NCBI GenBank assembly: GCA_041392955.1
Contig: JAWKLB010000001.1
Span: forward strand, 37,344-101,343
Length of the DNA stretch: 64,000 nucleotides
Reading direction: 5' to 3'
Origin: Chitinophagales bacterium
GTDB lineage: Bacteria; Bacteroidota; Bacteroidia; Chitinophagales; BACL12
Of the stretch, positions 4,897 through 60,081 are shown piece by piece. Position numbers and translations under genes: made by a program. Below the pieces are notes generated by a model. It made no database searches, was not told the origin of the DNA, and worked only from the letters and a program-made list of their open reading frames with translations. Position 1 is the stretch's first letter. Each line of letters starts with the position of its first letter.

Positions 4897-4932
4897 ATGG
4901 CACCCGTTATGTCGGGTGCCATTCGTTTTTTT
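4897..4932 (+). terminator. Rho-independent terminator
   Basis: ATGGCACCCG-TTATGT-CGGGTGCCAT is a perfect 10-bp stem, followed by TCGTTTTTTT. Confidence 0.75.
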
Positions 4933-4948
4933 CATCCGCTCTTCCGCT

Positions 4949-5239
4949 CTGCAAAGTCTCCAGACTTGCAGTAATGCACAGTTCTGCAAAGTCTCCAGAC
5001 TTGCAGCACGCTCTGCTCTGCAAAGTCTCCAGACTTGCAGCACGTTCTGCTCTGCAAAGTCTCCAGACTTGCAGCACGCTCTTCCGCTCTGCAATGTCTC
5101 CGACATGCAGTAATGCACAGCTCTGCAAAGTCTCCAGACTTGCAGCACGTTCTGCTCTGCAAAGTCTCCGACTTGCAGCACCGCTCTTCCGCTCTGCAAT
5201 GTCTCCGACATGCAGAACCATTTCCTGGTCTCCGACCAG
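4949..5239 (+). repeat. Array of 8 GTCTCC-core palindromic units plus one short-stem relative
   Basis: Units start at 4949, 4984, 5018, 5052, 5089, 5123, 5157 and 5194. A short relative, CTGGTC-TCC-GACCAG, lies at 5225-5239. Linkers are drawn from three recurring sequence types. Confidence 0.9.
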
Positions 5240-7540: not shown

Positions 7541-7555
7541 CCCGCTCTGCACGCT

Positions 7556-7775
7556 CTGCAAAGTCTCCGACTTGCAGCAAACCGCTCTGCAGGCTCTGCT
7601 AAGTCTCCAGATTTGCAGCACTATTCCCGGGTCTCCGACCCATTTTTAACACGCACTGCAAAGTCTCCAGACTTGCAGCACGCACTACTGCTCTGCAAAG
7701 TCTCCAGACTTGCAGCGCTAATCCCGGGTCTCCGACCCATTTTTAACACGCTCTGCTATGTCTCCAGACTTGCAG
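7556..7775 (+). repeat. Composite array: 5 long GTCTCC-core units interleaved with 2 short-stem units
   Basis: Long units start at 7556, 7596, 7656, 7693 and 7753. Short GGGTC-TCC-GACCC hairpins followed by ATTTTT lie at 7629-7641 and 7726-7738. The higher-order period is 97 bp. Confidence 0.9.
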
Positions 7776-7883
7776 CATCAACCCTGTCTCTCACCCACAT
7801 TAACCATCTCCCCAAAAAAATTATCTCCAAACATTTGCGTAGTCAAATAACTACATATATATTTGTAGTCAAATAGCTACATA

Positions 7884-9643: not shown

Positions 9644-9765
9644 AGAAATGAAAAATGAAAAATGAAAGATGAAAAATGAAAAATGAAAAATGTCCGCCGG
9701 TAGGCGGATCACCCGTAGGGTGGAAAGATGAAAAATGAAAGAGGAAAAATGAAATCGGTAATCAC
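9644..9765 (+). repeat. Period-7 array (AAAAATG)n interrupted by a conserved GC-rich double hairpin
   Basis: There are 7 heptamers at 9644-9692. TCCGCC-GGTA-GGCGGA lies at 9693-9708 and CACCC-GTA-GGGTG at 9710-9722. Six more heptamers lie at 9724-9765. The 37-nt core recurs at 59832-59868. Confidence 0.85.
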
Positions 9766-9804: not shown

Positions 9805-9960
9805 AATGAGGAATTAGGAATGATCCGTAACAATAACAAATAGTCCCTCTGCGCCCTCAGCGAAGAACTCTGCGATTTGCCTCCCGCAGGGACGGCACAC
9901 TGCGTGAAATTTAGGAATTAGGTCCGAAGGACCCCTTAGGGGAATAATGAATAAGGAATT
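9805..9960 (+). repeat. Mosaic intergenic segment: GGAATTA-type heptamers plus mini-hairpin pair GGTCC-GAA-GGACC / CCCC-TTA-GGGG
   Basis: Heptamers AATGAGG AATTAGG AATGATC start at about 9805. Hairpins lie at 9921-9933 and 9932-9942. The same stem pair occurs inverted at 23472-23492. Confidence 0.6.
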
Positions 9961-10602: not shown

Positions 10603-10685
10603 TACTCCTTCAATAATTTTAACAGGTAAGATGGAAGGGTAAAGTACGCACGGCGTTTAGCCCATTTCCTTTTAATGGACAAATA

Positions 10686-10952
10686 ATGAAAACAGTAGTT
10701 ATCGGAGAATCATCCGGCGCAAGCATGGAAAAAATAATGGAAGTGTATCCGCGCCACAAAGCGGTTGCCGAAAAATTCATCGCCATGGGGGTAGTGATCG
10801 GCATCGGGCGCTTCAGTGGCTCCGGCAATATGGCCATTTTCAAAACACGGGAAGCGGCTGAGCAATTTGTGCGCGAAGATCCTTTTATTTTGGAAGGGCT
10901 TGTAGGTTCTTTCGTTATCCGCGATTGGATGGATGAGTTGATACCGGAATAA
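10686..10952 (+). CDS. YciI-like small protein
   Basis: 88 aa. The C-terminal FVREDPFILEGLVGSFVIRDW resembles the YciI-family signature (DPF...G). Confidence 0.5.
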   Translation: MKTVVIGESSGASMEKIMEVYPRHKAVAEKFIAMGVVIGIGRFSGSGNMAIFKTREAAEQFVREDPFILEGLVGSFVIRDWMDELIPE

Positions 10953-19942: not shown

Positions 19943-19949
19943 TCCCGCT

Positions 19950-20049
19950 CTGCAAAGTCTCCAGACTTGCAGAACTTTATTCAGGTCTCCGACCTGCATG
20001 CTCTGCAAAATCTCCAGACTTGCATAACCTTATTCAGTTCTCCGACCGT
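19950..20049 (+). repeat. Two long plus two short GTCTCC-core palindromic units
   Basis: Long units lie at 19950-19972 and 20003-20025. The short unit CAGGTC-TCC-GACCTG lies at 19982-19996. A degenerate unit CAGTTC-TCC-GACCG lies at 20035-20049. Confidence 0.85.
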
Positions 20050-22120: not shown

Positions 22121-23293
22121 ATGCAATTTTTACCTTTGTATGGATATATGCCAGGCTACACAGGACCCGAAGACATATTATATATTTCCGGAATAGTATT
22201 ATCTCTCTTCCTTTCTTTTATTTTATTTTCTAAAAATAAAAAGACGACGCCCGATATCATCCTCGGGATATGGCTGTTGGTTTCCGGTGCCGATCTGTTC
22301 ACCTTCTTTTTATTTTTTACCGGTGCATATACGCACATGCCCGCTGTTACGGCGCTTGGTTTCCCTATGCCACTCCTGCAGGGACCCTTCTTATTTTTAT
22401 ATACAAAGTATCAAACCGGAAACAATGCTTTTCGCAGGAAGGACCTTTTGCATTTTGCACCGGCTTTGTGTTCCCTTCTGATGTTTTTCCCTTTTTATTT
22501 GCTTTCATATGCCGATCAGGTAAGGGTGTTTCAGGAAGAAGGGAAAGGATATATGGTGCAGATGTCGGTCAATGTGATCGCCATTATGGTATCCGGCGTA
22601 ATATATATTGTTTTGTCGATGCGGCGCTTGCTTTCTTTTCGCAAAAAGATCGTCGATCGCTTTTCCAATACGGATAAGATCCGTTTCAACTGGTTATTAT
22701 ATCTTATTATTGGTATTGCATGTATTTGGGTCGTGATCCTGTTCGTAGGAGAGGACCACTTGATCTTTGCTTCTTCGGCATTATTTATTTTATGGCTTGG
22801 GTATTACGGTATTAAGCAATCACAGGTGTTTAATCAGCATGCCGAGGTGGACTGGACCTATTTTACAACGAGCCAAGACCATGTGCAGGAAAATGAGATG
22901 GATGGATCCGAGCACACTAAGGTAAAATACAGCCGTTCTGCGCTCCAGGCAGAAGAGGCAATCAGGATACACAATGCGCTGCAAAAACGGATGGCGGAGC
23001 AAAAACCGTTTACGGATCCGGAACTCACGCTCGATGCACTTGCAGCCATCTTACAGGTACAACCCGACCACCTGTCGCAGGTGATCAACAGCCTGGAAGG
23101 AAAAAATTTCTACGATTATATCAATACCCTGCGGGTAGAAGAGTTCCTGCGCAAAACGCAGAATGGGGATGACATCCGTTATACCTTGCTTGCACTCGCA
23201 TTCGACTGCGGGTTCAATTCAAAGGCATCCTTCAACAGGAACTTTAAGAAGATCATGGGCACCTCGCCGAGTATGTATTTGAATAAAGGTTAG
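22121..23293 (+). CDS. Membrane-anchored AraC family transcriptional regulator
   Basis: The N-terminal half has about 6 TM segments. The C-terminus LLALAFDCGFNSKASFNRNFKKIMGTSPSMY is an AraC HTH. Confidence 0.8.
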   Translation: MQFLPLYGYMPGYTGPEDILYISGIVLSLFLSFILFSKNKKTTPDIILGIWLLVSGADLFTFFLFFTGAYTHMPAVTALGFPMPLLQGPFLFLYTKYQTGNNAFRRKDLLHFAPALCSLLMFFPFYLLSYADQVRVFQEEGKGYMVQMSVNVIAIMVSGVIYIVLSMRRLLSFRKKIVDRFSNTDKIRFNWLLYLIIGIACIWVVILFVGEDHLIFASSALFILWLGYYGIKQSQVFNQHAEVDWTYFTTSQDHVQENEMDGSEHTKVKYSRSALQAEEAIRIHNALQKRMAEQKPFTDPELTLDALAAILQVQPDHLSQVINSLEGKNFYDYINTLRVEEFLRKTQNGDDIRYTLLALAFDCGFNSKASFNRNFKKIMGTSPSMYLNKG

Positions 23294-23510
23294 GGGTTAA
23301 GGGTTAGGGGTTAAGAGTTATGGGTTAGGTGTTAGGGCCGTTATTGTCCATAGTACTTACTTTATGTCAGACTGTGACTGCGACTGCGACTGAGACTGGA
23401 CCATTGGTCATGAGGGAAAGATAATTGTTTAAAGCACTGCCTTCACATGCAGGCAGACATTCACCACTCACCCCCAAAGGGGTCCAAAGGACATTCACCA
23501 TTCACCATTT
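23288..23510 (+). repeat. Mosaic intergenic element: telomere-like (GGTTAGG)7, AGTACT anchor, (GACTGY)5, mini-hairpin pair, (CATTCAC)n
   Basis: GGTTAGG GGTTAAG GGTTAGG GGTTAAG AGTTATG GGTTAGG TGTTAGG lies at 23288-23336 and contains the AraC stop codon. AGTACT lies at 23352-23357. GACTGTGACTGCGACTGCGACTGAGACTG lies at 23369-23397. CCCC-AAA-GGGG and GTCC-AAA-GGAC lie at 23472-23492. Confidence 0.85.
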
Positions 23511-36588: not shown

Positions 36589-37998
36589 ATGCGTAAAGTG
36601 CAGTATATTCGGTACATGAGATATACTTTTTTATACGCTGTGCTTTTGTTCTGCAATGTGCTTAAAGCCCAAACAGAACTCGACCTTTATATTTTAGATG
36701 TGATGGAGACCCGCCATATCAGTGGAGTAAGCGCTTGTATCATAAAAGAAGGAAAACTGGCATGGACCGGGAACTATGGTTTGGCAAATCGTCCCGCTAT
36801 GCAGGAGGTGGATGAAAACACGATGTTCATGCTGGCATCGATATCCAAAACAATTACCGCTACTGCTCTTATGCAATTATATGATGCGGGTTATTTTAAC
36901 CTGGACGATGATATCAATGCATACCTCCCATTTCCCGTCCATAATCCGCTCTATCCGGATGCACCCATCACCTTTGAACAATTGCTGACGCATACCAGCA
37001 GCATACAGGATAACTGGGACGTGATGATACCATTATATGTTGACGGAGATTCGCCCGTGGGATTGGGATATTTTATGGAACAATATCTAACAGATACAGG
37101 GATCTATTTCGATGCCGATAATAATTACTATACGTTTACCCCCGGAACGCATTTGCATTATAGTAATATTGGCGCCTCCCTATGCGGATATCTGGTAGAG
37201 ATCATCAGCGGCTCTCCGTTCAATACATATTGTAATACGCATATCTTCGAACCAATGTGCATGGATAACACCGGCTGGTTTCTGAGCGAACTGGACGAAG
37301 AGCATGTCGCACATCCCTATTCCTATTATACAGGTAATTACCACGATAATGGATTATATGGTTACCCCGATTATCCCGACGGTCAACTGCGCACCACCTG
37401 TATATCTCTTGCCAAATTTTTATGGATGAATATGAACGGAGGTTTGTTCGACGGACAACAAATTTTGCAACCCGCAACTGTAGAGCTCATGCAATCGTCG
37501 ATCTTTCCCGCTATTGATCCCACACAAGGACTCATCTGGTATTATTATTCCAATGCAACCGGTACCTGGTGGGGACATAACGGTGGTGATGATGGCGTAA
37601 ATACGGATATGTTCTACAACCCGGATACGCAAACAGGGATCATCGTGCTTACCAATGGCGATGGCAGCCATACCAATATCTGGAATGCATTGATCGATCA
37701 TGCTGCTACGTTGGATGTGAGTGATCTTCCCGAAATAGCCTGTGTTACAGAAATACCTGCTGCGGTCAACAACACTGCTTTGGAGCACATTTCCATCTCC
37801 CCGAATCCTGTACACAATATCCTGCACATGCAAGGTATAGATGCCGGTACAGGGATGTTTATTTATGATGCAACAGGAACTATATGTATGTATGAAATAT
37901 TTTCCGGTCAGGCATTGGACGTTTCTGCACTGCCCGCCGGAACTTATTTTATGAAACCTGCATCTGCAGCATCGGGGCTTGCTTTCATTAAATGGTAA
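36589..37998 (+). CDS. Beta-lactamase-family serine hydrolase with T9SS type-A sorting domain
   Basis: The SxxK motif is LASISKTITATAL, with YSN downstream. The C-terminus ISISPNPVHNILHMQ...GTYFMK is a T9SS CTD. Confidence 0.8.
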   Translation: MRKVQYIRYMRYTFLYAVLLFCNVLKAQTELDLYILDVMETRHISGVSACIIKEGKLAWTGNYGLANRPAMQEVDENTMFMLASISKTITATALMQLYDAGYFNLDDDINAYLPFPVHNPLYPDAPITFEQLLTHTSSIQDNWDVMIPLYVDGDSPVGLGYFMEQYLTDTGIYFDADNNYYTFTPGTHLHYSNIGASLCGYLVEIISGSPFNTYCNTHIFEPMCMDNTGWFLSELDEEHVAHPYSYYTGNYHDNGLYGYPDYPDGQLRTTCISLAKFLWMNMNGGLFDGQQILQPATVELMQSSIFPAIDPTQGLIWYYYSNATGTWWGHNGGDDGVNTDMFYNPDTQTGIIVLTNGDGSHTNIWNALIDHAATLDVSDLPEIACVTEIPAAVNNTALEHISISPNPVHNILHMQGIDAGTGMFIYDATGTICMYEIFSGQALDVSALPAGTYFMKPASAASGLAFIKW

Positions 37999-38754: not shown

Positions 38755-40302
38755 ATGAAAGAAAAAATCGCTCTTCTCACGATACTTGCACCTTTTTCCT
38801 TTTCCCTTTTCGCACAAGAGGGCACATTGGATCCGTCTTTTGGTACCGGTGGAATTGTCATCACAGATTTTGAATATGCCAGTGATGTGGCTTACAGCAT
38901 GGCACTACAGGACGACGGCAAAATGGTGGTGGTAGGATTCAGCAATCTGGGTCCCGCTCTGCGCAAAGACATTACGATGGTGCGATATGATGCTGATGGT
39001 GTGCTGGATCCTTCCTTTGGCGACGGCGGTAAAGTGATCACGGATATTGGTGGCCTCGAAGAAAGTGACTTTGCATACGATGTGGCCATTCAAAACGACG
39101 GCAAGATCGTCGTGACCGGAACCACTATACCGGATGGCGGATATAAAATTCTCGTTGTACGATATAATTCCGATGGATCTCTGGATCCTACATTTGGCTC
39201 GGGAGGTTATATGGAAACCGATTTCGGCGGCATGGAAGAAATAGGGCAATCCGTGAAAATATTGGATGACGGAAAGATCATTGTAGGTGGATTTCGCAAC
39301 GATGGTTTGAAGCGCAACTTCGCACTGATCAAATTGAATACCGACGGCACACTGGATGATTCGTTCGGTACAGGCGGTAAAGTATATACTTCCTTTGCCG
39401 GCGACAGGCATGATTCTGGGTATGATGTGGAAATTGACAATGAGGGCAGGATAGTTCTTGCCGGATATAGTTATGTGGGAACATCTTCCGATTTTCAATT
39501 TGCGCTTGCCCGCTATATGCCGGATGGTTCGCTGGATGCAACTTTTGACGGCGATGGAAAATTGCTCACCGATGCGGGATTGTTGGTCGGACAGGCATAT
39601 GCGATGGTGTTGCAACCGGATAATAAAATTGTAGTTGGCGGATATGGTTACTACGGATTTATCGCAGATTTTGCAGTGGTGCGGTATAATCAGGACGGAA
39701 CACTCGATCCTACATTCGGAGTTGGTGGCATAACGCACACCGATTTTGGAAGTAATAAAGACGACTGGGGCTTCGCGCTTTGCCTGCAGCCCGATGGTAA
39801 AATATTACTTGCCGGTGCCGCGTTTGATGGATCACATAATAATGTGGCTATAGCAAGATATCGGGTGAACGGATTTCTCGATCCTGCCTTCGGTGGATCG
39901 GGAATGGTCGTCACACCCATAGGTCCGGCTTCAGAAGGTGCCTTTTCTATTCTTATGCAACCCGACGACCGGATACTTATTTCCGGATATACTTTTCAGT
40001 TGGGTGCCAATGACTTCCTCACGGCAAGATATAATCCGGTGGAGTTGGAGGAAAGTACCGCAGATACTTACGCGGAAACATATCTGCAATTGAGTCCGAA
40101 TCCCTGCAGCGATCACCTTTCCATACAAAGTAAATACGAGGGCCTGGCAACTATTTCAGATATCACTGGAGCCATCGTTTGGCGGCGTGAGATCGATCCG
40201 GGTGTCACCTACCTCTCTACGCAGTCCTTTGCTCCGGGCATCTATTTTCTCCATTTGCAGGGAAATGAAGGCGTGGCCGATTTGCGTTTTGTAAAACATT
40301 GA
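38755..40302 (+). CDS. Delta-60 repeat (DUF5122 beta-propeller) protein with T9SS sorting domain
   Basis: The start is set at ATG 38755 (MKEKIALLTILAPFSFSLFAQ). There are about 9 repeats of G.LDP(S/T)FG.GG......F......A.A...Q.DGKI.V.G. The C-terminus LQLSPNPCSDHLSI...GIYFLHL is a T9SS CTD. Confidence 0.75.
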   Translation: MKEKIALLTILAPFSFSLFAQEGTLDPSFGTGGIVITDFEYASDVAYSMALQDDGKMVVVGFSNLGPALRKDITMVRYDADGVLDPSFGDGGKVITDIGGLEESDFAYDVAIQNDGKIVVTGTTIPDGGYKILVVRYNSDGSLDPTFGSGGYMETDFGGMEEIGQSVKILDDGKIIVGGFRNDGLKRNFALIKLNTDGTLDDSFGTGGKVYTSFAGDRHDSGYDVEIDNEGRIVLAGYSYVGTSSDFQFALARYMPDGSLDATFDGDGKLLTDAGLLVGQAYAMVLQPDNKIVVGGYGYYGFIADFAVVRYNQDGTLDPTFGVGGITHTDFGSNKDDWGFALCLQPDGKILLAGAAFDGSHNNVAIARYRVNGFLDPAFGGSGMVVTPIGPASEGAFSILMQPDDRILISGYTFQLGANDFLTARYNPVELEESTADTYAETYLQLSPNPCSDHLSIQSKYEGLATISDITGAIVWRREIDPGVTYLSTQSFAPGIYFLHLQGNEGVADLRFVKH

Positions 40303-46037: not shown

Positions 46038-46853
46038 TTAATTACCGGAATCGGGCTTCTTTTTCGGGAAAAGTGTATGTCCCCATTTTTTAGGGAGAAG
46101 AGGCGCGATCAATTGTCCCGCATAATGTGTGGGGAATGATTCTTCTATTCCCAATCTTTCCGGTTCGTGCGGCGGACAGTGATATGTGCCGAAAAGTAAG
46201 TCCATGAGCGGTGATATATTGGCATAATTACCGGCGTGTTGATCCATGCTATGATGCCAGTGGTGTAGCTCAGGGGAGCCTATAAGCATGCGCAAAGGAC
46301 CTATGCGCAATCGCACATTTGAATGAATATAAATGGCCCAGATACCGCGAAATGCAATCACTCCTGCGAGTGTTTCCAATGGAAATCCCAGAATAAATGC
46401 TGGTAGATTGATCAGGCTGATCGTATAAATGCTGTCGAGCGGATGTTCTCTGTGTGCCGCCAGCCAATCGAGATGTGTTGCGCTGTGATGCACTTTGTGA
46501 AAGCGCCACAAAAAAGGAACATGATGTTGTAATCGATGTGCCCAGTATATGATCAGATCGCTGAATAATATGACTTCCACCGCTTGTAAGATCCATGGTT
46601 GAGATCGCAGTTTTGCACTAAATGGAATCGGTACCCAATGGTGCAGATGATCATTGAAATATTGCAATGCCAACAATACCAATCCACTCCAAAGAAAATA
46701 TTGACCGGCAAAGTAACAGAAGTCGAGGAACCACTGCGGACGGAAAAACTTCTGTCCTTTATTCGCAGGAAATGCTTTTTCCATGGGAATAAAGAGAACC
46801 ATGAGAAAAAGGAGGCTGCCGCCTGTTGCTGTTATGATCCCCGGGATGTGCAT
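46038..46853 (-). CDS. Fatty acid hydroxylase / sterol desaturase family membrane protein
   Basis: The histidine boxes are HRLQHH, HKVHH and HHWHH, and several TM segments are present. Confidence 0.75.
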   Translation of the reverse strand: MHIPGIITATGGSLLFLMVLFIPMEKAFPANKGQKFFRPQWFLDFCYFAGQYFLWSGLVLLALQYFNDHLHHWVPIPFSAKLRSQPWILQAVEVILFSDLIIYWAHRLQHHVPFLWRFHKVHHSATHLDWLAAHREHPLDSIYTISLINLPAFILGFPLETLAGVIAFRGIWAIYIHSNVRLRIGPLRMLIGSPELHHWHHSMDQHAGNYANISPLMDLLFGTYHCPPHEPERLGIEESFPTHYAGQLIAPLLPKKWGHTLFPKKKPDSGN

Positions 46854-46856
46854 ATA

Positions 46857-47309
46857 TCAATCTTCCGACCTCCCATCTTTCTTGCCTTTACCGAGAACCG
46901 GTCTATCAAATACCGGCCCTGATTTTGGGCTGTAGAAATGGAGGTAATGCTTTTCGGTGCTGTCTTTTTTTTCAGTGTTTTGGATCGCGTCCTGCGATTG
47001 TACACTATCCCTCATAAATTCCTGAATGGTTTGCATCTCTAAATGTAATGACGTATCGGGATAAAATGACCTTTTCCTCTCTGTAATCACAATGGATTTT
47101 GATGAAGACATTATGGTAAGATGTTCCTGATCAATGTCGGGCAGACTGTCAGTTTCGCTTGCTGTCGTATTTGTGAGAGAACCGCCGTTGTGGCTGGTTT
47201 GGATCCCATAGGCAGCATGTTTAAAAGCACCTGACCTGTAAAGCACGAAGCAACTGATCCCGGTAAAAAACAACAGTAAGGTAGCACCTTGTAAAAAAAC
47301 TCGTTTCAT
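46857..47309 (-). CDS. Hypothetical protein with N-terminal TM/signal segment
   Basis: This is the first gene of the minus-strand cluster, ending 3 nt before the next start. No family recognised. Confidence 0.45.
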   Translation of the reverse strand: MKRVFLQGATLLLFFTGISCFVLYRSGAFKHAAYGIQTSHNGGSLTNTTASETDSLPDIDQEHLTIMSSSKSIVITERKRSFYPDTSLHLEMQTIQEFMRDSVQSQDAIQNTEKKDSTEKHYLHFYSPKSGPVFDRPVLGKGKKDGRSED

Positions 47310-47605
47310 AATTCAATGTATCCGGATCAAAAACGATCAATACGGACTTATGTTGTACAAGGTATGCAATTAATGTAAAGAATAAAAAGTGCGGCGTCTC
47401 TTGAATGGAAAATGGCGCATGGTTGAAAAGTGAAGTCCCATTTTATAGCCGGTGAGCTGAACTCACTAATCCTGATTCCGCAAGAAGTCGCGGTTACATC
47501 TCCTTTAAATAATTAGTAATGATATTTAAATCGGCCCTGACCTTCCTAAGAGTCCTTTGGACTTTACCATTTCAAGTTATGTCTACCAATAACGACGAAC
47601 AAACG

Positions 47606-47825
47606 CACTATAGAAATTCCCCCTTGACCAGCCCACACACCCTGACCCCTGACCTTTTCTCAATACATAAAACAATAATAACCATCTAACTCACTACAGA
47701 AATTCATTCTTGAATAGGATGCACACCCTGACCCCTGACCTTCTCACAATACATAAAACAATAACAACCATCTAACTCACTATAGAAATTCCCCCTTGAA
47801 TAGGATGCACACCCTGACCCCTTTA
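47606..47825 (+). repeat. 86-bp tandem repeat, 2.5 copies, abutting the stop codon of the tail-fibre-like gene
   Basis: Units lie at 47606-47691, 47692-47777 and 47778-47825 (truncated). Each contains CACCCTGACCCCTGACC. Confidence 0.9.
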
Positions 47826-50800
47826 TTACTTACTTATCACCATCTGTTTCGTTGCAACCACTTTACCATCCACAACCAATGAATACGCATACGTACCACT
47901 TGCCATATTGCCGGATTCTATAACCAGATGTGTTTCATCACACGCGATCGGAATAACGGTGATCACTTTGCCTTCAGCACTGTTCACGATCATGATGCTT
48001 GCATCTCTGCAATCTTTGGGAATACGGAATGGTATCATAGTGGTATTATCAAATGGATTTGGAATATTCTGACCCAATAATGCATTTTCAGGATCAGCAG
48101 CCGAAACGCTTATGATGCCGTCATTGAGTTTTGCATCGGAGGCCTGCGCACTGAGTTCGGCTATTTGTGCCTTTAATGCCTCAATTTCTTTTTGCTGTTC
48201 TTCCAACTGTTCATTTTGCGCAGTGTTTACTGAATCTAATTCCTGTGCAGCTTTTACCAGTGGCACCACAAATTCCGCGTAACGCAATCCGTATAAATTA
48301 TTTTCATTTTGCGGTTTGTCCACTCCGGAAAAATCATAACCGATCTGCTGTGCTGCTTTCTCCACATCCTGCGCAATAAAGCCGGTATAAGTGATCTGTG
48401 CCTTTGCATCCAATGCTTTTTTATTGATCTGTTGAGTAACCTTGTCTTCGGAATAAATGCTGTCGCTTAGGATGCGATCCTCTTCCAGATGTCCGCTTAA
48501 AGCTTCCATTTTTAATGTATATGTTACCGGTTGAAGCAATTTGATGAACTCCAATCCCGGTACATCTTCCTGCACATTCTCTTTCATTCTTTCATCACTG
48601 ATATTTGTCCAGCCTGCATATCCGCCGATACTGGTCACTGAGCTATTCCCGATACGCACCTGATTGTCGGCATCGGTCCTTGCATTATAGCCAAGTGCTG
48701 TACTGTTGGTGAGTGAGAATGCGCCGTTATTTGCCGCATAACATCCCAGATACGTGCAGTTCGTATTGAAACTGTAAGAGCTGCCCGTTGACAATCCGAT
48801 ACCAATATTATATGAACCGGTGGTGTTGAATTCCAGAGCACCATTCCCCAGGGCAACCTTATTATGACCGGTGCTGTTATAATATAATGCCGACGCGCCA
48901 ACAGCGACATCAAACCCGCCGCTGGTATTAGAGTACAAGGCAGATGATCCCACACCTGTATTGGAACCTCCGTTGACGTTGCTGTACAAAGTGCGATATC
49001 CTATTGCTGTATTAATGGAACCGGTATTGGTGTATAAACTTTGATATCCTATCGCAGTATTATTCGAACCATTCGTATTGGAGTAAGATGCATTAAACCC
49101 GATGGCCGTATTGAACCATCCGTTATTATTCAGATAACTCGCACGGATACCCATAGCTGTATTGTATGAACCATTCACATTACTGTATAGTGTGGAGTAA
49201 CCAACGGCGGTATTTCCTGCGCCGGTAGTATTGCTGTATAAACTCTGACTTCCAATGGCAGTAAATTCATTTCCTGTTGTTGAACTGTATAAGGCATTTA
49301 CGCCCAATGCAGTAATTCCAATCCCGGTTGTATTATTATATGCTGCATAAGAGCCAACACCCGTGTTGCTGTCGCCGGTAGTATTGCTGCGCATGCTGTG
49401 GTCGCCGATCGCAGTATTACCATCACCATCTGTATTGTTATACATGGAAAATAAACCCATGGCCGTATTTGAATTTCCCGTTTGATTGGAATAGAGTGCA
49501 GATGAACCAAATGCTGCATTGAACGATCCGGTAGTGTTTAATTGCAGTGCCGAGTTTCCTGTGGCTGTATTGGAACTCCCGGTGGTATTTGTATACATGG
49601 CACGAAAACCTATTGCAGTATTCAGATCGGCCGTTGAATGATATAATGCCTCACTACCAACGGCAGTGGAATATGAATTTCCGGCTAAAGTGTAAGAAGC
49701 TTTATGGCCTATTGCCGTGTTATTGGTTCCGGTGGTGAGATTAAATAACGTAGAATCCCCCACGGCAACATTGTAGGTGGAAGTCCCGGCGTTGTATAAA
49801 CTATAACTTCCCACGGCTGTGTTATTCCAACCATATACACTGGTAGATAAAGCATATGCGCCGAGAGCTGTATTAAATTGTCCGCTCGCATTTTCTTTCA
49901 GGGAATAGGAACCAACGGCGGTATTGTATGAACCGATGCCATTGCTGTACATCGACAGGGCACCGATGGCCACATTTTCATTTCCGCCATGCGTATTATA
50001 CATGGAAAAAGTGCCGAAGGCGCTGTTGTTATTACCATCTTCATTTAAATACAGCACATCTTTACCCATACCGGTATTATTTGAACCTCCAACATTATTA
50101 TATAATGCCTCAGCACCCACGCCAACATTATTCAAGCCGGTGGTATTTGAATACATGGCATGACTTCCTATTGCTGTATTCTGACTACCCGTTGTGTTTA
50201 CCCACAAACTGGCATTTCCTACCGCGACATTTTCACTACCACTTGTATTATAGAGCATGGCCCATTCACCCAATGCAGTATTTTCATTTCCGTCTATATT
50301 GAATCCGAGTGCCGACAATCCAACAGCAGTATTCAGGGATCCCGTAGTATTGGTTTGCAAACTTCCGCTGCCTACTGCGGTATTGGAGTATCCTGTAGTA
50401 TTGGCATACATAGCATTTGATCCGATGGCCGTATTATAGTATGCAGTTTGATTAGCACGCAATGCCTGACTGCCTAAAGCGGTATTTTCTTCTCCTGTTG
50501 TATTATACCACATACTCTCATTTCCCACCGCGACATTATCATTGCCCGTTGTATTGTACGTCATGGCATTTTGCCCGATCGCAGTATTTCTATTGCCCAT
50601 TGTATTGAAAGCCAGTGTGGAAATACCAACGGCAGTATTCAGAGAACCGGCAGTATTATATTCCATGGAGCCACTCCCGACGGCAGTATTGGAATAACCA
50701 TCTACGTTATCGCGTAATGCGTCCGAACCTACTGCTGTGAGATAATAATGTGTTTCATTTGTTTTCAATGCATTATTTCCAATGGCTGTATTGCTGCCTC

Positions 50801-51788
50801 CGGTTGTGTTGTTGAGCATTGCAGAACTCCCCACTGCCACATTACTGCTTCCTGTTGTATTATTATAAAATGCAGAATCTCCTGCAGCAAGATTGTCTGT
50901 GCCGGAATTCCCCAAAGCGATACCTGCTCCGATAAATATATTTTGTGACCCCTGATTGGAAATAAATCGTTTATTATCCAGAAATACATATCCGTCGAGA
51001 TACAGATCCTTCCATGTATTTACCGTGCTTCCTAAACTATACGTAAAGGTGGTATTTGGAACAAGTGATTGATTGATCGCTGTTGCGCTCAGGTTAGATA
51101 AACTTGTATTCGCACCGCCACCACCACCTGCAACAGTGGTCCAGGATAAAATACCTGCGCCGTTCGTTGTCAGTACCTGTCCGCTTGTACCGTCCGCTGC
51201 CGGTAATACCCAAATGAAATTTGCAGCGATATTATCTGCTGCCTTGAAACCGGTATAATTATTTCCGTTCGCCGCTAATTCATTGAATCGCAATTCACCT
51301 GTTGCTCCGGCCAGCACATCGTAAGGTTTAATGCGGATGGCTCCGGGCACAGTGGGTGTGATATCTATCATGGCTCCCGGTGTTGCGGTGGAGCCGAGAG
51401 ATAATTTATTTTTGATATAGGCATTGCCGCCGGCTGTCGACCAGAAAACAGGTGCTCCCGTTCCGTCGCGGAACTCATACCGCGAATTCGTGTTGCTGAA
51501 AACCAAACCATAATTCGGATTTCCGGAATAGCGGAAAGCATAATGATCACCAGCAACCAAAAAATCGGCGTTGCCGCTGAAACTCAGATCGCCATCGAGT
51601 CCAAAAGCCGAATGATCGGCACCGGTTCCGAATTGGGAAATGCCACCTTCTACCTGCAAAAGAGTGGATGGCGTCACGGTTCCTACGCCCACATTTCCAC
51701 TGGCAGGAAATGTATTTGTTTGTGCACCAAGGAACAGCGGCGAGATAAAAAGGAAAACACTACATAAGCGGCGGAGCATTTTTTTCAT
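47826..51788 (-). CDS. Tail-fibre-domain adhesin-like protein: signal peptide, about 900 aa of NTA.G repeats, S74-type intramolecular chaperone domain, coiled coil, T9SS sorting domain
   Basis: The start is set at the Met giving MKKMLRRLCSVFLFISPLFLGAQT. There are dozens of roughly 14-aa repeats (NTAVG..AL..NTTG..). The motif GGYAGWTNISDERMKENV...YTGFIAQDVEKA...YGLRYAEFVVPLVKAAQEL matches the phage tailspike chaperone domain. The C-terminus QNIPNPFDNTTMIPF...GTYAYSLVVDG is a T9SS CTD. Confidence 0.8.
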   Translation of the reverse strand: MKKMLRRLCSVFLFISPLFLGAQTNTFPASGNVGVGTVTPSTLLQVEGGISQFGTGADHSAFGLDGDLSFSGNADFLVAGDHYAFRYSGNPNYGLVFSNTNSRYEFRDGTGAPVFWSTAGGNAYIKNKLSLGSTATPGAMIDITPTVPGAIRIKPYDVLAGATGELRFNELAANGNNYTGFKAADNIAANFIWVLPAADGTSGQVLTTNGAGILSWTTVAGGGGGANTSLSNLSATAINQSLVPNTTFTYSLGSTVNTWKDLYLDGYVFLDNKRFISNQGSQNIFIGAGIALGNSGTDNLAAGDSAFYNNTTGSSNVAVGSSAMLNNTTGGSNTAIGNNALKTNETHYYLTAVGSDALRDNVDGYSNTAVGSGSMEYNTAGSLNTAVGISTLAFNTMGNRNTAIGQNAMTYNTTGNDNVAVGNESMWYNTTGEENTALGSQALRANQTAYYNTAIGSNAMYANTTGYSNTAVGSGSLQTNTTGSLNTAVGLSALGFNIDGNENTALGEWAMLYNTSGSENVAVGNASLWVNTTGSQNTAIGSHAMYSNTTGLNNVGVGAEALYNNVGGSNNTGMGKDVLYLNEDGNNNSAFGTFSMYNTHGGNENVAIGALSMYSNGIGSYNTAVGSYSLKENASGQFNTALGAYALSTSVYGWNNTAVGSYSLYNAGTSTYNVAVGDSTLFNLTTGTNNTAIGHKASYTLAGNSYSTAVGSEALYHSTADLNTAIGFRAMYTNTTGSSNTATGNSALQLNTTGSFNAAFGSSALYSNQTGNSNTAMGLFSMYNNTDGDGNTAIGDHSMRSNTTGDSNTGVGSYAAYNNTTGIGITALGVNALYSSTTGNEFTAIGSQSLYSNTTGAGNTAVGYSTLYSNVNGSYNTAMGIRASYLNNNGWFNTAIGFNASYSNTNGSNNTAIGYQSLYTNTGSINTAIGYRTLYSNVNGGSNTGVGSSALYSNTSGGFDVAVGASALYYNSTGHNKVALGNGALEFNTTGSYNIGIGLSTGSSYSFNTNCTYLGCYAANNGAFSLTNSTALGYNARTDADNQVRIGNSSVTSIGGYAGWTNISDERMKENVQEDVPGLEFIKLLQPVTYTLKMEALSGHLEEDRILSDSIYSEDKVTQQINKKALDAKAQITYTGFIAQDVEKAAQQIGYDFSGVDKPQNENNLYGLRYAEFVVPLVKAAQELDSVNTAQNEQLEEQQKEIEALKAQIAELSAQASDAKLNDGIISVSAADPENALLGQNIPNPFDNTTMIPFRIPKDCRDASIMIVNSAEGKVITVIPIACDETHLVIESGNMASGTYAYSLVVDGKVVATKQMVISK

Positions 51789-51929
51789 AATCATGATTTT
51801 TGTGCATTGCATAATAGAATAAGGACAAACACAAAAATATCCGCCCGCTCAGAGCCATGAAATACCCGAATCCGAGTATGGGAAGGTTAGGGCTGGGGCA
51901 GGAGCAGGGGAAGTCACAGTCACAGTCGG

Positions 51930-52160
51930 ACTCAATTATGAGCTCTTATTGTTTAAAAAAGTACTGCCCTGACCAATGACTTCTGACCCCTAACCCTTGT
52001 CATATCGCAGCAGCAGCCCAACTCAATTATGTATACTTATCCTTTTAAAAAGTACTGCCCTGACCCCTGACCCTTGTCATATCGCAGCAGCAGCCCAACT
52101 CAATTATGTGCACTTATCCTTTTAAAAAGTACTGCCCTGACCCCTGACTCCTCTCACCTT
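51930..52160 (+). repeat. Tandem repeat (91, 77 and about 61 bp units) upstream of the tail-fibre-like gene
   Basis: Units start at 51930, 52021 and 52098 with ACTCAATTATG...AAAAAGTACTGCCCTGACC... Units 1 and 2 differ in length by 14 nt, i.e. two heptamers. Confidence 0.9.
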
Positions 52161-52203: not shown

Positions 52204-52236
52204 CGGCCCTAACCCCTAACCCCAACCCCTAACATT
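52204..52236 (+). repeat. C-rich telomere-like heptamer array (CCCTAAC type)
   Basis: The sequence is CGGCCCTAACCCCTAACCCCAACCCCTAACA. The junction CGGCCCTAAC is shared with the inverted array at 23321-23340. Confidence 0.85.
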
Positions 52237-52241
52237 TTCCG

Positions 52242-52249
52242 TACATTTG
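52242..52249 (+). promoter_or_regulatory. Candidate Bacteroidota -7 box (TAnnTTTG) for lemA
   Basis: TACATTTG lies 16 nt upstream of ATG 52265. No clear -33 TTG is present, because that position lies inside the C-rich array. Confidence 0.35.
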
Positions 52250-52264
52250 TCTCAAACAACAGCC

Positions 52265-52825
52265 ATGCTTATACCCATAATCATAGTGGTCGTTCTGATC
52301 CTGATCATTGTCGGCCTTTATAACTCTCTGGTCAACCGCAAGAACCAGGTGGAAAACGCATTCGGGACCATCGATGCCATGCTCAAAAAACGGTATGATC
52401 TTATCCCCAACCTGGTGGAGACCGTAAAGCAATACATGACCTATGAGAAAGATACCCTCACCAAGATCGTGGAGTTGCGCAATACCATTCAGCAGAATCC
52501 GACCATGCCTGCACAGGAACGCATCGGAATGGAGAATCAGCTTACCGGACTGCTCGGCCAGCTGCGCGTTGCCGTGGAGAATTATCCCGACCTGAAGGCG
52601 AACAACAGCTTTATCCAATTGCAATCTACATGGACCGAAATAGAAGAGCAGCTTTCTGCTGCACGCCGCACCTATAATGCCGCCGTGACCTCCTATAATA
52701 ATTCGGTGGAGATGTTCCCCACCAACATCATGGCCAACATGATGGGTTATAAGCGGAAAGAGGTGTTGAAGATCGATGAGGCGGAACGCAAGAATATTTC
52801 TGCCCACGACCTGTTCAACAAGTAA
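52265..52825 (+). CDS. lemA: LemA family protein
   Basis: The start is at ATG 52265 (MLIPIIIVVVLILIIVGLYNSLV). The pattern NQVENAFGTIDAMLKRRYDLIPNLVETVK...RTYNAAV..YN is canonical LemA. Confidence 0.85.
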   Translation: MLIPIIIVVVLILIIVGLYNSLVNRKNQVENAFGTIDAMLKKRYDLIPNLVETVKQYMTYEKDTLTKIVELRNTIQQNPTMPAQERIGMENQLTGLLGQLRVAVENYPDLKANNSFIQLQSTWTEIEEQLSAARRTYNAAVTSYNNSVEMFPTNIMANMMGYKRKEVLKIDEAERKNISAHDLFNK

Positions 52826-56435: not shown

Positions 56436-56531
56436 TCTATGTACCGGAAATGGTGATTTCATTACCCAGTTTCTTAACAGCACGGACTGAATTTTTTATC
56501 TTAGCATGTCGAATTGAAACCTTTTAGTGCC

Positions 56532-59500
56532 ATGAATCATACACAACGTTCCCTGTTGGTATTGCTTTGCCTATTGCCTTCCCTTATTTGGGCAAACCAA
56601 AATACCATATCGGAAAATTCCGTTTCGGGGAATTCTTCTGCAGTATTTATTGAAAATAATGGTCAGATAACACATCCCGATGGATCTGCTGCATCCGAAG
56701 TGCTTTATACCCTGCGCACAGCCGGATTGCAGGTGTTCGTATATAAAAATGGCCTGAGCTATCAGCTGAGTGCTAAGGGCGATCAGGTCGACCATTCGGC
56801 CATGTTGCCCGGTATCGATGCAGATCTTGCGGATATGGTGGTGCATGCATCCGAGCGCACAGTGCGCTTTAATGTGATCCTGGAAAATGCCAACATGCTC
56901 GCACGTGTGGAAGCGCTGGAAAATACGCCCTATGTGGAACAATATTTCACTGCGAAAGATCAAAATCAGATCCGCGCAGGCAGTTGCAAAAAACTGATCG
57001 TGCACGATATCTACCCCGGAATTGATTGGGTATTATATGTCAGGGATAATACGATCAAATACGATTTTATTGTTGCTCCCGGTTCTGATCCGGCACAAAT
57101 ACGATTTTTAGTGGAGGGTGCAGATGCTATCAGCACACCGCAAAAAGATATTTTACAATATAGTACTACTCTTGGAGATGTTCGCGATGCACATCTTTCT
57201 TGTTCATTACAGGAAGATAATATGCCTGTGGATGCATCCTTTATTGTAGAGCAACAGGTTGTGCGTTTTGATGTTGCAGATTACGACAGAAAAAAAACGC
57301 TGGTCATCGATCCCGAATTGGAATGGTCAACTTTTTATGGTGGAGAAGGTGAAGATGCGATCAACGGTATCACCATTTCACAAGATGGCTTCTTGTATTT
57401 TACCGGCTATACACACAGCTCTACGAATATGGCCTACCTGGGATATCAAATGACATATGGCGGGGGCAATTTCGACATGTATTTTGTCAAAATGGATACC
57501 CTGGGAAACAGGATATGGGGAACCTATTTTGGTGGTTCAGAAGGTGACTATGGCACTGGTGTGAACGTAGATATCGATGGCAATTTATTGGTAAGCGGAT
57601 TTTCATACAGCCCCGATTTTCCAACTACACCTGGCGCATTTCAAACGGCATTCGGAGGGAATATCGACGGCGTCCTCATAAAAGCAACAACAGATGGGGA
57701 GATCCTTTTTGCCACTTTATTTGGAGGCAGCGGTGTGGAATATATGCGTTCCGTTTCTTCAGATAGTGAAGGCAATATTTATATAGGTGGTTCTGCAAGC
57801 AGCGACTCACTGGGTTACGGTGCTTCGGCACATCAGATATACGTTGGCGGTTTAAGCGACGAATGTTTGGTGAAATTCGATAGTGACGGTAATAGAATCT
57901 GGGCGACCTATCTCGGTGGAACCGGCGACGATTATAGCCGCGCGGTTGGTGTTGACCTGGAAGATAATGTATATCTGGGTGGTATAGCCACCAGTGCAAA
58001 CGGCATCTGGTTCGGTGTTGGTTATGATTCTACCTGGTTCAATAATAATGATGGTACGGTTGCCAAATTTGATACTGCCGGCACCTTGCTTTGGTCAACC
58101 TATTATGGCGGGAATGGTGATGATAATGTGAATGGCCTTGCCTTCGACGAACATAATAATGTATATGTTGCCATGCAGGCCGGAAGTAAAAACGGTTTGG
58201 CATATAACGGATACCTGAATTTCGGTTTCGGGAAAGTGGACGCTGTATTAATAAAATTCAAACCGGATGGTATTCGCGAATGGGCAACCTATTATGGTGG
58301 TTCATTTGAGGATATGGGTAAAGCAGTTGCCGTGTATCAGGACAGAGTATATCTGGTTGGTCACTCCTATAGTTCATTTGGTGTGGCTGTAGGTGGTTAT
58401 CAAAATTATTTGGTCGGATTTGGCGATGCAATGATCGTTCGTTTCGATACAACGGGAGCGTTTTATTGGGGGTCTTATGCCGGCGGTTATGATGTGGATT
58501 ATGGGCGTGGTGTTGCTGTGAGTTCCGAGGGTACCATTTATATGGGTGGTAAAACCTTCAGTTATACATTTCCTACTACCGACGGCGCCTATCAGGAAGT
58601 ATTTGGAGGTGATCCGGCCGATGGCTTTATCCAAAAAATAAGTGAGTGCCCGGGCACCTGGTATTATTTTGATTATGATGGAGATGGATACGGGAATTCC
58701 TTTTTTCCTGTATTTGCATGTAGTCCGCCGCTCGGATATGTGTTGAACGATGGCGATTGTAATGATTTTTTGGCCTCCATACATCCCGGTGCAGCCGAAA
58801 TATGTAACGACCTGGATGATGATTGTGATTTTCTGGTAGACTCAGATGATCCGGATGCCGTTGGAGAACCCATTTGGTATTTTGATGGCGATGCCGATGG
58901 TTATGGTGATGTGAATAATACAACCGCGGCTTGCGAGGTACCCGCATTATATGTTGCCGATTCAACTGATTGTAATGACACCATGAATACCATCTATCCT
59001 GGTGCAACGGAAGTATGCAATGGGTTAGATGATGATTGCGATGCAATGGTAGATGAAGATGTGATCGTTGCTGCTATAACTGCGGGCGGACCTACCACTT
59101 TTTGTAAAGGCGATCATGTTACCCTGAATGCAAATACAGGTGTTGGTTATCTCTATCAGTGGAAGCGGAATGGAAATATTATTCCGGGTGCAATTACCGG
59201 TTCTTATGCTACGAACAAGGGTGGGAACTATACCGTGGATGTTACCCTGCCGGGTGGTTGCGCCGATCTGTCCGACATTACTACGGTTACGGTGTTGACG
59301 AAACCAAGCGCGAATATTGTCGCAATGAACGATACGGATATTTGTGTATTGGGTTATTGCAAATTGAAAACAAACAGCAGCCCCGGATTTACTTATCAAT
59401 GGTTTTGGTATGGTTCACCAATTCCGGGCGCTACCAATAATATCCTGAACGCCATTTTTACAGGTCCGCATTATGTGCGTGTAACCAATGCATCCGGTTG

Positions 59501-59816
59501 TTCAAAGAATTCGGCAACCATAAACCTTACATCCAGTTGTAAGTTATCAGATGAGAACACTCCGGAACTGTCCATATTCCCGAACCCGGCATCCAATGAT
59601 CTGTATGTGCAACTGCATGGTATACCATCTGCACAAGATGCATGGGTCTCCATGTATAACGCTATAGGAGAATTGGTATACTCCGGTCAAACAGAGGTGA
59701 ACAACGGAGAGCTGGATCTGTATCTCAACGTATCTGCATTTGTGCCCGCTTCAAATTATTTCATACGCATAGAAGCCGGCGGAAACGTATATACCGGACA
59801 GTGGACGAAGCAGTGA
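56532..59816 (+). CDS. T9SS-secreted SBBP-type beta-propeller repeat protein with MopE-like metal-binding motifs and two Ig-like modules
   Basis: The start is at ATG 56532 (MNHTQRSLLVLLCLLPSLIWA). It has repeats of YFGGSG.D.G..V.VD..GN.Y..G.T.S..FPTT, and DGDGYG...CNDLDDDCD three times. The module FCKGDHVTLNAN...YQWKRNGNIIPGA is shared with 5375-7540. The C-terminus LSIFPNPASNDLYVQL is a T9SS CTD. Confidence 0.8.
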   Translation: MNHTQRSLLVLLCLLPSLIWANQNTISENSVSGNSSAVFIENNGQITHPDGSAASEVLYTLRTAGLQVFVYKNGLSYQLSAKGDQVDHSAMLPGIDADLADMVVHASERTVRFNVILENANMLARVEALENTPYVEQYFTAKDQNQIRAGSCKKLIVHDIYPGIDWVLYVRDNTIKYDFIVAPGSDPAQIRFLVEGADAISTPQKDILQYSTTLGDVRDAHLSCSLQEDNMPVDASFIVEQQVVRFDVADYDRKKTLVIDPELEWSTFYGGEGEDAINGITISQDGFLYFTGYTHSSTNMAYLGYQMTYGGGNFDMYFVKMDTLGNRIWGTYFGGSEGDYGTGVNVDIDGNLLVSGFSYSPDFPTTPGAFQTAFGGNIDGVLIKATTDGEILFATLFGGSGVEYMRSVSSDSEGNIYIGGSASSDSLGYGASAHQIYVGGLSDECLVKFDSDGNRIWATYLGGTGDDYSRAVGVDLEDNVYLGGIATSANGIWFGVGYDSTWFNNNDGTVAKFDTAGTLLWSTYYGGNGDDNVNGLAFDEHNNVYVAMQAGSKNGLAYNGYLNFGFGKVDAVLIKFKPDGIREWATYYGGSFEDMGKAVAVYQDRVYLVGHSYSSFGVAVGGYQNYLVGFGDAMIVRFDTTGAFYWGSYAGGYDVDYGRGVAVSSEGTIYMGGKTFSYTFPTTDGAYQEVFGGDPADGFIQKISECPGTWYYFDYDGDGYGNSFFPVFACSPPLGYVLNDGDCNDFLASIHPGAAEICNDLDDDCDFLVDSDDPDAVGEPIWYFDGDADGYGDVNNTTAACEVPALYVADSTDCNDTMNTIYPGATEVCNGLDDDCDAMVDEDVIVAAITAGGPTTFCKGDHVTLNANTGVGYLYQWKRNGNIIPGAITGSYATNKGGNYTVDVTLPGGCADLSDITTVTVLTKPSANIVAMNDTDICVLGYCKLKTNSSPGFTYQWFWYGSPIPGATNNILNAIFTGPHYVRVTNASGCSKNSATINLTSSCKLSDENTPELSIFPNPASNDLYVQLHGIPSAQDAWVSMYNAIGELVYSGQTEVNNGELDLYLNVSAFVPASNYFIRIEAGGNVYTGQWTKQ

Positions 59817-59831
59817 TGGGAAAGGAATAAG

Positions 59832-59909
59832 AAATGTCCGCCGGTAGGCGGACCACCCGTAGGGTGGAGGAATCAGTAATCAGTAATCAGTAATAAGTAA
59901 TAGTTAATA
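59832..59909 (+). repeat. Second copy of the GC-rich double hairpin, followed by (AGTAATC)6
   Basis: AAATGTCCGCCGGTAGGCGGACCACCCGTAGGGTGGA lies at 59832-59868 and has one substitution versus 9688-9724. Heptamers AGGAATC AGTAATC AGTAATC AGTAATA AGTAATA GTTAATA lie at 59868-59909. Confidence 0.85.
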
Positions 59910-59942: not shown

Positions 59943-60012
59943 AGTACTCATTATTTCATCAGTCCTAACGCTTAACACCTAACCCCTAACCCATAACTCT
60001 TAGCCCATAACC
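59943..60012 (+). repeat. AGTACT anchor plus C-rich telomere-like heptamer array, inverted copy of 23288-23357
   Basis: AACACCTAACCC(CTAACCC)ATAACTCTTAGCCC matches the reverse complement of 23296-23327, except for one extra heptamer and one substitution. Confidence 0.8.
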
Positions 60013-60081
60013 CCCTTCCCTCCACCGAAGCAAAAAACATTTTCAGTAATCATACACACTCTTAGTAGCACCCCGACCAAT

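Follow-up and report, generated by a model that had tools for sequence, protein, structure and literature searches.

A 64,000-nt stretch of contig JAWKLB010000001.1 of a Chitinophagales bacterium (referred to below as the window; all coordinates without a locus number are positions in it) contains a gene for a large surface fibre protein that is bordered on both sides by tandem arrays carrying the same heptamer, CCCTGAC. This arrangement raises the question of what the 86-bp tandem array at the stop codon of the fibre gene represents: (i) part of a recombination cassette, as was suggested in a preliminary description of the locus, or (ii) intergenic DNA of a more general type. The results presented below favour the second possibility. 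The array is probably non-coding, intergenic heptamer simple sequence repeat (SSR) DNA, similar to short tandemly repeated repetitive (STRR) sequences and present in many spacers of this lineage, which would have originated by slippage or recombination.

Anatomy of the 86-bp array and of its 77-bp partner

Tandem arrays were called with Tandem Repeats Finder (TRF), which identified a period-86 array at 47587–47822 (2.7 copies, 84% matches, score 332); the 86-bp tandem repeat noticed in the preliminary description is thus real. A gapless scan and pairwise alignment revealed an additional, degenerate leading copy, which extends the array leftwards to approximately 47533 and carries a single CCCTGAC at 47535. 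The main features of the region are as follows (H, heptamer block; S, intervening segment).

47533–47822, plus strand: 86-bp heptamer-anchored tandem array with the layout H'-S0-H-S1-H-S2-H (last block truncated); TRF core 47587–47822
47535–47541 (single), 47640–47653, 47726–47739 and 47812–47822 (CCCTGACCCCT), plus strand: heptamer blocks of the 86-bp array
47551–47563, no strand assigned: mini-hairpin AGTCCTTTGGACT, located in the degenerate leading copy; its reverse complement is the GTCCAAAGGAC module at 23481–23491
47823–47828, minus strand: double stop (TAA TAA) of the fibre gene, directly adjoining the last base of the array
47826–51812, minus strand: surface fibre gene; longest open reading frame (ORF) of 1328 aa, probable start at 51788 (MKKMLRRL) giving 1320 aa
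51914–52150, plus strand: 77-bp heptamer-anchored tandem array of three units, the first degenerate; TRF core 51983–52148 (2.2 copies, 96%)
51967–51996 (degenerate, four heptamers), 52058–52071 and 52135–52148, plus strand: heptamer blocks of the 77-bp array

In the register used in the preliminary description, 73 of the 86 positions agree between units 1 and 2 (85%), at the lower edge of the 85–90% estimated there by eye, and 41 of 48 positions agree between units 3 and 2 (85%). When the units are delimited by the heptamers, the similarity is higher: 80 of 86 positions (93%) are the same in 47640–47725 and 47726–47811. Unit 3, in the former register, is an exact chimera: the first 22 nt are identical to unit 1 and the last 23 nt to unit 2. 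Such a structure is expected if units swap segments, and it also fits unit 3 as the ancestral state.

The array had been described as breaking off exactly at the base before the stop codon of a 1320-aa gene. The gene length agrees with the start at MKKMLRRL, and the array does abut the stop, but its end lies at 47822 and not at 47825, as 47823–47825 (TTA) form a second in-frame stop. The plus-strand sequence following 47822 is TTATTA, and the minus-strand gene end reads ...AAG TAA TAA. The motif reported for each unit is present in full (CACCCTGACCCCTGACC) in units 1 and 2 only, the last block being shortened to CCCTGACCCCT. On the opposite side, the array leaves 223 nt to the start of the next gene, orf150.

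The claim that the same heptamer recurs across the gene on the same strand was borne out. Four copies of the doublet (CCCTGAC)2 are present in the window (0.02 expected), at 47640, 47726, 52058 and 52135, i.e. in both arrays, always on the plus strand and always flanking the fibre gene. The single heptamer was found 13 times (4.2 expected for the whole window), with 11 copies placed in the two spacers flanking this gene. Both arrays start and end with a heptamer block, and this block, 14–15 nt long, is the only part common to the 86- and 77-bp units. The 60–70-nt remainders of the two units aligned no better than shuffled sequences in either orientation.

The tandem copies might also have been produced by mis-assembly of a metagenome bin, given that the source is a metagenome-assembled genome (MAG) and that independent short-read contigs stop at the arrays; the evidence makes this extremely improbable. 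Contigs of the same species assembled from short reads (Logan; 1.4–2.2 kb, ending in or near arrays) were available from three other samples. They match the flanks at 99.96–100% (for L087, 1 mismatch in 2222 bases; L-numbers denote the loci fetched for comparison), and two of them also match outer array units, reproducing the array edges exactly (L087 up to 47669, L002 from 52133), while the number of units rests on the source assembly. The array sequence is therefore not a one-off assembly product. Moreover, the units differ from each other at 6–13 positions and share no exact stretch of at least 31 nt (counted by eye on the aligned units), which makes them resolvable by reads, and arrays of a similar kind recur across the window and also in genomes of isolates, for example Pinibacter.

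Several known types of element were considered and rejected. No Rfam family matched the 86-bp array, folding of whole arrays and of single units on both strands gave results no better than those for shuffled sequences (z-scores −0.97 to +1.85), and a terminator scan found no terminator-like site in the array, which argues against a structured RNA or a terminator. No inverted repeats were detected in 47310–47830. The region 47310–47825 contains no ORF of at least 60 aa and no TAnnTTTG −7 box, and no excess of sigma-70-like promoters was seen in the array. The non-heptamer parts of the 86-bp unit have no other copy in the window or in 1.5 Mb of fetched Bacteroidota loci. A scan of Joint Genome Institute (JGI) metagenome contigs with unit-specific 21-mers gave a single match, a chance one inside an unrelated coding sequence (...HTLTPDL...). 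A dispersed element, of the miniature inverted-repeat transposable element or repetitive extragenic palindrome type, was rejected on the grounds that terminal inverted repeats, a stable hairpin and dispersed copies in the window, the fetched loci and the metagenome contigs are all lacking. In the case of a CRISPR (clustered regularly interspaced short palindromic repeat) array, the putative "spacers" would be 85–96% identical to each other, and no cas genes were seen. Finally, an att-flanked islet or a site-specific recombination cassette would require a neighbouring recombinase or a tRNA target. Pfam scans of ORFs of at least 120 aa between 40.7 and 63.1 kb revealed no recombinase, integrase or transposase near the fibre gene, and there is no tRNA gene in 40–60 kb.

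Repeat arrays in other spacers of the window and of related genomes

Analysis of the whole window showed that approximately 10 of its spacers hold heptamer or hairpin arrays. The heptamers identified were CCCTGAC, CCCTAAC (GGTTAGG/CCTAACC), ATTCACC, AATCAGT and TGAAAAA, in up to 8.7 copies, and one hexamer array was also present. Nine of these spacers adjoin a stop codon, and in five of the nine an array edge is placed at −10 to +4 nt relative to the stop (7542, 9641, 19947, 23284 and 47822), compared with 0.67 spacers expected under uniform placement (P about 4e-5). At 23284–23293, the TAG stop of an AraC-family gene falls inside the first GGTTAGG heptamer, and at 9641 the TGA stop constitutes the first triplet of the TGAAAAA array. 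The distance from an array to a start codon is mostly at least about 100 nt (usually 100–270 nt). Termination at a stop codon is therefore a general habit of the repeats in this window and is not specific to the fibre gene. This result favours the alternative that the preliminary description had itself kept in reserve, namely an insertion preference of mosaic elements.

Bracketing of a gene by arrays of one family is likewise not unique to the fibre gene. A family of 34-bp hairpins (GCTCTGCAAAGTCTCCAGACTTGCAGCAC) is represented by 13 copies, all on the plus strand, which are distributed over four adjacent spacers of the first 20 kb. Its arrays stand on both sides of a gene encoding a cargo protein of the type IX secretion system (T9SS), and one of them begins 1 nt past the stop of this gene. 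The repeat families of the window cluster locally, each in a single orientation. The spacers containing the 34-bp family and the T9SS-cargo genes of the window are listed below.

896–1065, 4942–5218, 7542–7777 and 19947–20047, plus strand: spacers with the 34-bp hairpin family (array periods 34, 71, 97 and 105 bp)
5375–7540 (the gene bracketed by 34-bp hairpin arrays), 38755–40302, 47826–51812 (the fibre gene) and 56514–59816: T9SS-cargo genes with adjacent arrays
14205–16883 and 36589–37998: T9SS-cargo genes without adjacent arrays

Small hairpin modules accompany some of the arrays. A 35-nt double-hairpin module (ATGTCCGCCGGTAGGCGGAyCACCCGTAGGGTGGA) is present twice, at 9692–9725 within the TGAAAAA array and at 59836–59870 beside the AATCAGT array; it was found in none of the fetched relatives. 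Mini-hairpin modules (GGTCCGAAGGACC, CCCCAAAGGGG/CCCCTTAGGGG and AGTCCTTTGGACT) occur at 47551–47563, 23469–23491 and 9922–9943, beside different arrays and in both orientations. The CCCTAAC/GGTTAGG arrays, located at 23284–23337 (plus strand) and at 52207–52233 and 59964–60014 (minus strand), are telomere-like (GGGGTTA-type). They hold at least four G-runs and could form G-quadruplexes, like the G-rich heptamers of Nostoc and Xanthomonas (PMC4692102).

Comparison with other loci revealed a sporadic enrichment of heptamer tandems in other Chitinophagales. The density of heptamer tandems per 10 kb is 8.7 in L026 (Chitinophagaceae bacterium 26-R-25), 4.8 in L055 (the isolate Pinibacter aurantiacus), 4.35 in L005 (MAG_MBR_AS.25, a genome that also contains L085) and 2.66 in the window, compared with a median of 0.48 in 83 other loci. 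The nearest relatives in the genome collection have a Zn-peptidase 79–82% identical to that of the window, and in three loci (L003, L004 and L005) the block extending from LemA to a GH92 gene is syntenic with the window. The spacers of L005 orthologous to those around LemA, Zn-peptidase and rplM contain other heptamer arrays (CTCCTCT, TAATTGA, TGGTGAG, CAGAACT). No heptamer arrays were found in the orthologous spacers of L003 and L004, which are short. The heptamer ATTCACC/TGGTGAA is common to the window and L005, at non-orthologous sites.

In 26-R-25, P. aurantiacus and MAG_MBR_AS.25 (L005, 9758–9933), many spacers carry paired heptamer or octamer arrays in inverted orientation, 60–120 nt apart. 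One such pair, 10675–10706 (AGTTGAG) and 10767–10803 (TCTCAAC) of L055, directly follows the Zn-peptidase stop. Orthologous spacers of 26-R-25 and P. aurantiacus contain different heptamers. Such inverted pairs might fold into very long hairpins that perhaps function as terminators.

The fibre gene and its flanks

The fibre gene lies among chromosomal genes on both sides. Its left-side neighbours encode an aminotransferase, a carbonic anhydrase, a cupin, a hydrolase, a fatty-acid hydroxylase and orf150. The features closest to the two arrays are the following.

46857–47309, minus strand: orf150 (an ORFan), paired at a distance of 4 nt with the fatty-acid hydroxylase gene (46038–46853)
51832–51839, minus strand: Bacteroidota-type −7 promoter box TATTTTTG of the fibre gene, between this gene and the 77-bp array
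52207–52233, plus strand: (CCCTAAC)n array, (CCCTAAC)4, differing from CCCTGAC by one base; 31 nt separate it from the LemA start, and the −7 box follows closely
52242–52249, plus strand: −7 box TACATTTG of LemA, outside the arrays and downstream of (CCCTAAC)n
52265–52825, plus strand: LemA gene, the first of a block conserved in relatives (LemA, Zn-peptidase, rplM, rpsI, rpsB, tsf)

The predicted fibre protein is composed of a signal peptide, a long NTA-type repeat body, a Peptidase_S74 chaperone domain (aa 1072–1156) and a T9SS-type C-terminal domain. This last domain aligns over its entire length with the T9SS sorting domain of the homologues, the match to PF18962 being below threshold (16.7 bits) yet full length. 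A search returned 4374 homologues at E≤1e-20, the best of them with approximately 50% identity and named "tail fiber domain-containing protein"; exact-match look-ups with two start codons found no identical copy. The "tail-fibre" label reflects what is predicted to be a cellular secreted fibre and not part of a prophage. The repeat body groups with phage tail spike families (PHROGs). Despite this tail-spike-like body, the signal peptide, the T9SS-type C-terminus, the chromosomal neighbours and the absence of a tRNA argue against a prophage origin. Truncation of the gene by the array was also ruled out, because the last residues of the protein (...ATKQMVISK) align with its homologues to the final residue.

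A search of 5.8 billion proteins with the orf150 product gave only one match, an identical protein in an NCBI Chitinophagales MAG, and the hydroxylase is likewise identical to a protein of this MAG. The genes surrounding the best relatives of the hydroxylase (72% identity) are unrelated to those of the window. In L089 and L090, unrelated small ORFs (193 and 168 aa) occupy the position of orf150.

According to the preliminary description, the direct CCCTGAC blocks could be substrates for the gain, loss or swap of the fibre gene. In agreement with this, the same 14-nt block is present on either side in direct orientation, and the comparison with relatives shows the fibre gene to be accessory and located at a synteny break. 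Upstream of LemA, L003–L005 contain genes for Dus and a CAAX protease, which are not in the window, and there is no fibre orthologue there; the left flank of the window is not present in these loci either, so that a synteny break and not a clean empty site is observed. The slot upstream of LemA is also variable. At 4929–9019 of L005, between Dus and LemA, there is a three-gene insertion, absent from L003 and L004. Its products are a NUDIX hydrolase, a PLD-nuclease/helicase/DUF3427 protein of 1047 aa and a protein of 163 aa for which a weak HinfI-like match was obtained. The insertion resembles a small defence (restriction) islet in the slot where the window has the fibre gene.

However, this islet is not bracketed by arrays, and several other observations speak against a cassette. 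The 14-nt block is identical on both sides of the gene, but it is present in multiple copies inside the arrays, 100 nt off the gene start, and not at defined boundaries; the remaining sequence of the units is unrelated. Furthermore, RecA-dependent exchange would be poorly served by 14 nt of homology, the fibre gene and its flanks have equal GC contents, and the recombinase, transposase and tRNA searches described above were negative. The preliminary description had held that finding the same gene in relatives without flanking repeats would count against its proposal, and this is what was found: the closest homologues (about 50% identity) lie in unrelated loci with clean flanks. Their own conserved neighbourhood (a TPR protein and a 149-aa ORF), shared by the homologue in L085, contains no flanking arrays. 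In the genome represented by L005, arrays unrelated to surface genes stand equally at the conserved housekeeping spacers beside LemA, Zn-peptidase and rplM. In consequence, we regard a cassette as quite improbable, and the array has no demonstrable role in moving the fibre gene. Occasional deletion of the gene between 14-nt direct repeats could nonetheless be conceived.

Differences were also observed at the 3' end of the gene. Its three closest homologues have a hairpin followed by a T-run right after the stop (L083, 13286–13340; L084, 13304–13345; L085, 13142–13200), whereas no such terminator was found for the fibre gene of the window (minus strand, 47823–47600), the array being in its place. 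As the fibre gene is without a terminator, transcription may therefore read through into orf150 and the hydroxylase operon, which would be a likely side effect of the array.

The missing terminator is also compatible with insertion or rearrangement of the fibre gene, or of the block containing it, into an older CCCTGAC-rich spacer, with the cut block at 47812–47822 as the junction. The single orientation of the heptamers on both sides, the terminal block cut exactly at the gene end and the synteny break relative to L003–L005 would all be explained in this way. Against it, no complementary half-block (GACC...) is present at the other gene end (51813–51913), the spacers of the two arrays are unrelated, and no unsplit ancestral spacer was seen among the relatives at hand, which leaves this scenario an unlikely one.

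Origin of the arrays and comparison with known repeats

The origin of the two arrays in slippage or recombination between short repeats is inferred from their layout. In this model, each of two adjacent spacers would first acquire short CCCTGAC blocks, either newly arisen or seeded. Where two such blocks lay roughly 86 bp from each other (77 bp in the case of the other array), the segment enclosed by them would then be duplicated through slipped-strand mispairing or unequal recombination. The predicted product has the structure H-S-H-S-H, i.e. an array starting and finishing in the short repeat, and both arrays are laid out like this. Later exchange among units could have generated mosaic units. 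The extent of the 86-bp array would be set by tolerated space, or selection, with the fibre stop codon on one side and, on the other, the approximately 220 nt upstream of orf150 (the presumed location of its promoter). The heptamer shared by both sides of the fibre gene would result from local spread on the same strand, as in the 34-bp hairpin family.

Several points weigh against this model. The location of 11 of the 13 CCCTGAC copies in exactly two spacers around one accessory gene, on one strand, is striking, and the proposed local spread corresponds to no known mechanism. Two heptamer copies per block are short for classical slippage, and copy-number variation of the units stands only as a prediction of the model. 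The hugging of stop codons might instead reflect an active insertion preference. In addition, arrays are present in 6 of the 12 spacers beside T9SS-cargo (Por_Secre_tail) genes, compared with 4 of the 49 others (Fisher P = 0.002). This enrichment hints at more than neutral filler, although the numbers are low and such genes, being accessory, confound the comparison; it is not reproduced by the related array-rich genome (L005/L085).

The same enrichment would be in accordance with a regulatory or contingency element, in which the blocks would serve as binding sites for a protein or, through their number and spacing, would modulate how the fibre gene and the orf150 operon are transcribed, terminated or read through, so that a change in copy number would vary the expression of a surface protein. 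The 77-bp array is situated in the divergent promoter region, just past two −7 boxes, and there are precedents for surface proteins controlled by SSRs (reviewed in PMC4679880 and PMC4692102). On the other hand, the 86-bp array is positioned beyond the 3' end of the fibre gene, with 223 nt separating it from the next start codon, and neither promoter or terminator motifs nor significant structure were detected in it. The heptamers differ among spacers, and no single binding protein fits them. In the L005/L085 genome, the arrays stand by housekeeping genes and the fibre homologue has none. A regulatory role thus appears doubtful. We attach similarly little weight to a more specific scenario, in which arrays are recruited to the ends of T9SS surface-protein genes and their same-strand spread provides direct repeats and removes terminators, leading to gene turnover or variable read-through (a contingency system).

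The preferred reading, intergenic heptamer SSR DNA, places the arrays among repeats already known from other phyla. STRR sequences of heterocystous cyanobacteria were reportedly described by Mazel and co-workers in 1990. Like STRR and long SSRs, the arrays of the window show the features defining intergenic heptamer SSR arrays: head-to-tail 7-nt copies, an intergenic position near ORF ends and codon boundaries, several mixed and unrelated heptamers per genome and a sporadic distribution. Intergenic heptamer arrays, with mixed heptamers placed a few nt from codon boundaries, have been reported in Cyanobacteria, Beggiatoaceae (TAACTGA and others) and a few Bacteroidetes, and close relatives with the same gene order can be without them (PMC4679880). 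The arrays examined here differ from STRR and from the arrays of that study in having two-copy blocks within an 86- or 77-bp period and in their host, an uncultured member of the Chitinophagales; CCCTGAC is not among the heptamers described.

Heptamer SSRs have also been found to be over-represented, located near ORF ends and variable between relatives, and polymerase slippage has been proposed for them (PMC4692102). The CCCTGAC arrays resemble the SSRs of Xanthomonas (GGGAATC) and Nostoc (GGGGA(C/T)T) from that study in being G/C-rich (GGGGTCA on the minus strand), intergenic and close to an ORF end; array length of the Xanthomonas and Nostoc SSRs varies between relatives. Unlike these G-rich SSRs, a two-copy CCCTGAC block alone cannot form an intramolecular G-quadruplex, and only the (CCCTAAC)n arrays have at least four G-runs.

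At the level of the longer period, the array is similar to a minisatellite or variable number tandem repeat. It has head-to-tail 86-bp units (the 10–100 bp class) with 85–93% identity, and mosaic units indicating unequal exchange; copy-number polymorphism, the defining property of such loci, is predicted here by the slippage model. Very small dispersed repeats (SDR) are said to be nested in heptamer arrays of Nostoc (Elhai and co-workers, 2008). The tiny hairpin modules in or next to heptamer arrays of the window (9692–9725, 59836–59870 and AGTCCTTTGGACT at 47551–47563) are reminiscent of them, but their sequences and the phylum are different, and the 86-bp unit is not dispersed.

In summary, the array adds a new case, from an uncultured member of the Chitinophagales, to a class of repeats that is known but still poorly understood. 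A false lead is thereby removed, as no mobile cassette containing the surface-protein gene can be demonstrated. Arrays of this kind break short-read assemblies, which is relevant to the quality of MAGs. Both the hugging of stop codons and the local clustering on one strand will have to be explained by any mechanism proposed for such repeats, be it slippage, local copying or targeted insertion. Some uncultured Chitinophagales share with cyanobacteria and giant sulfur bacteria the filling of intergenic spacers by heptamer arrays and tiny hairpins.

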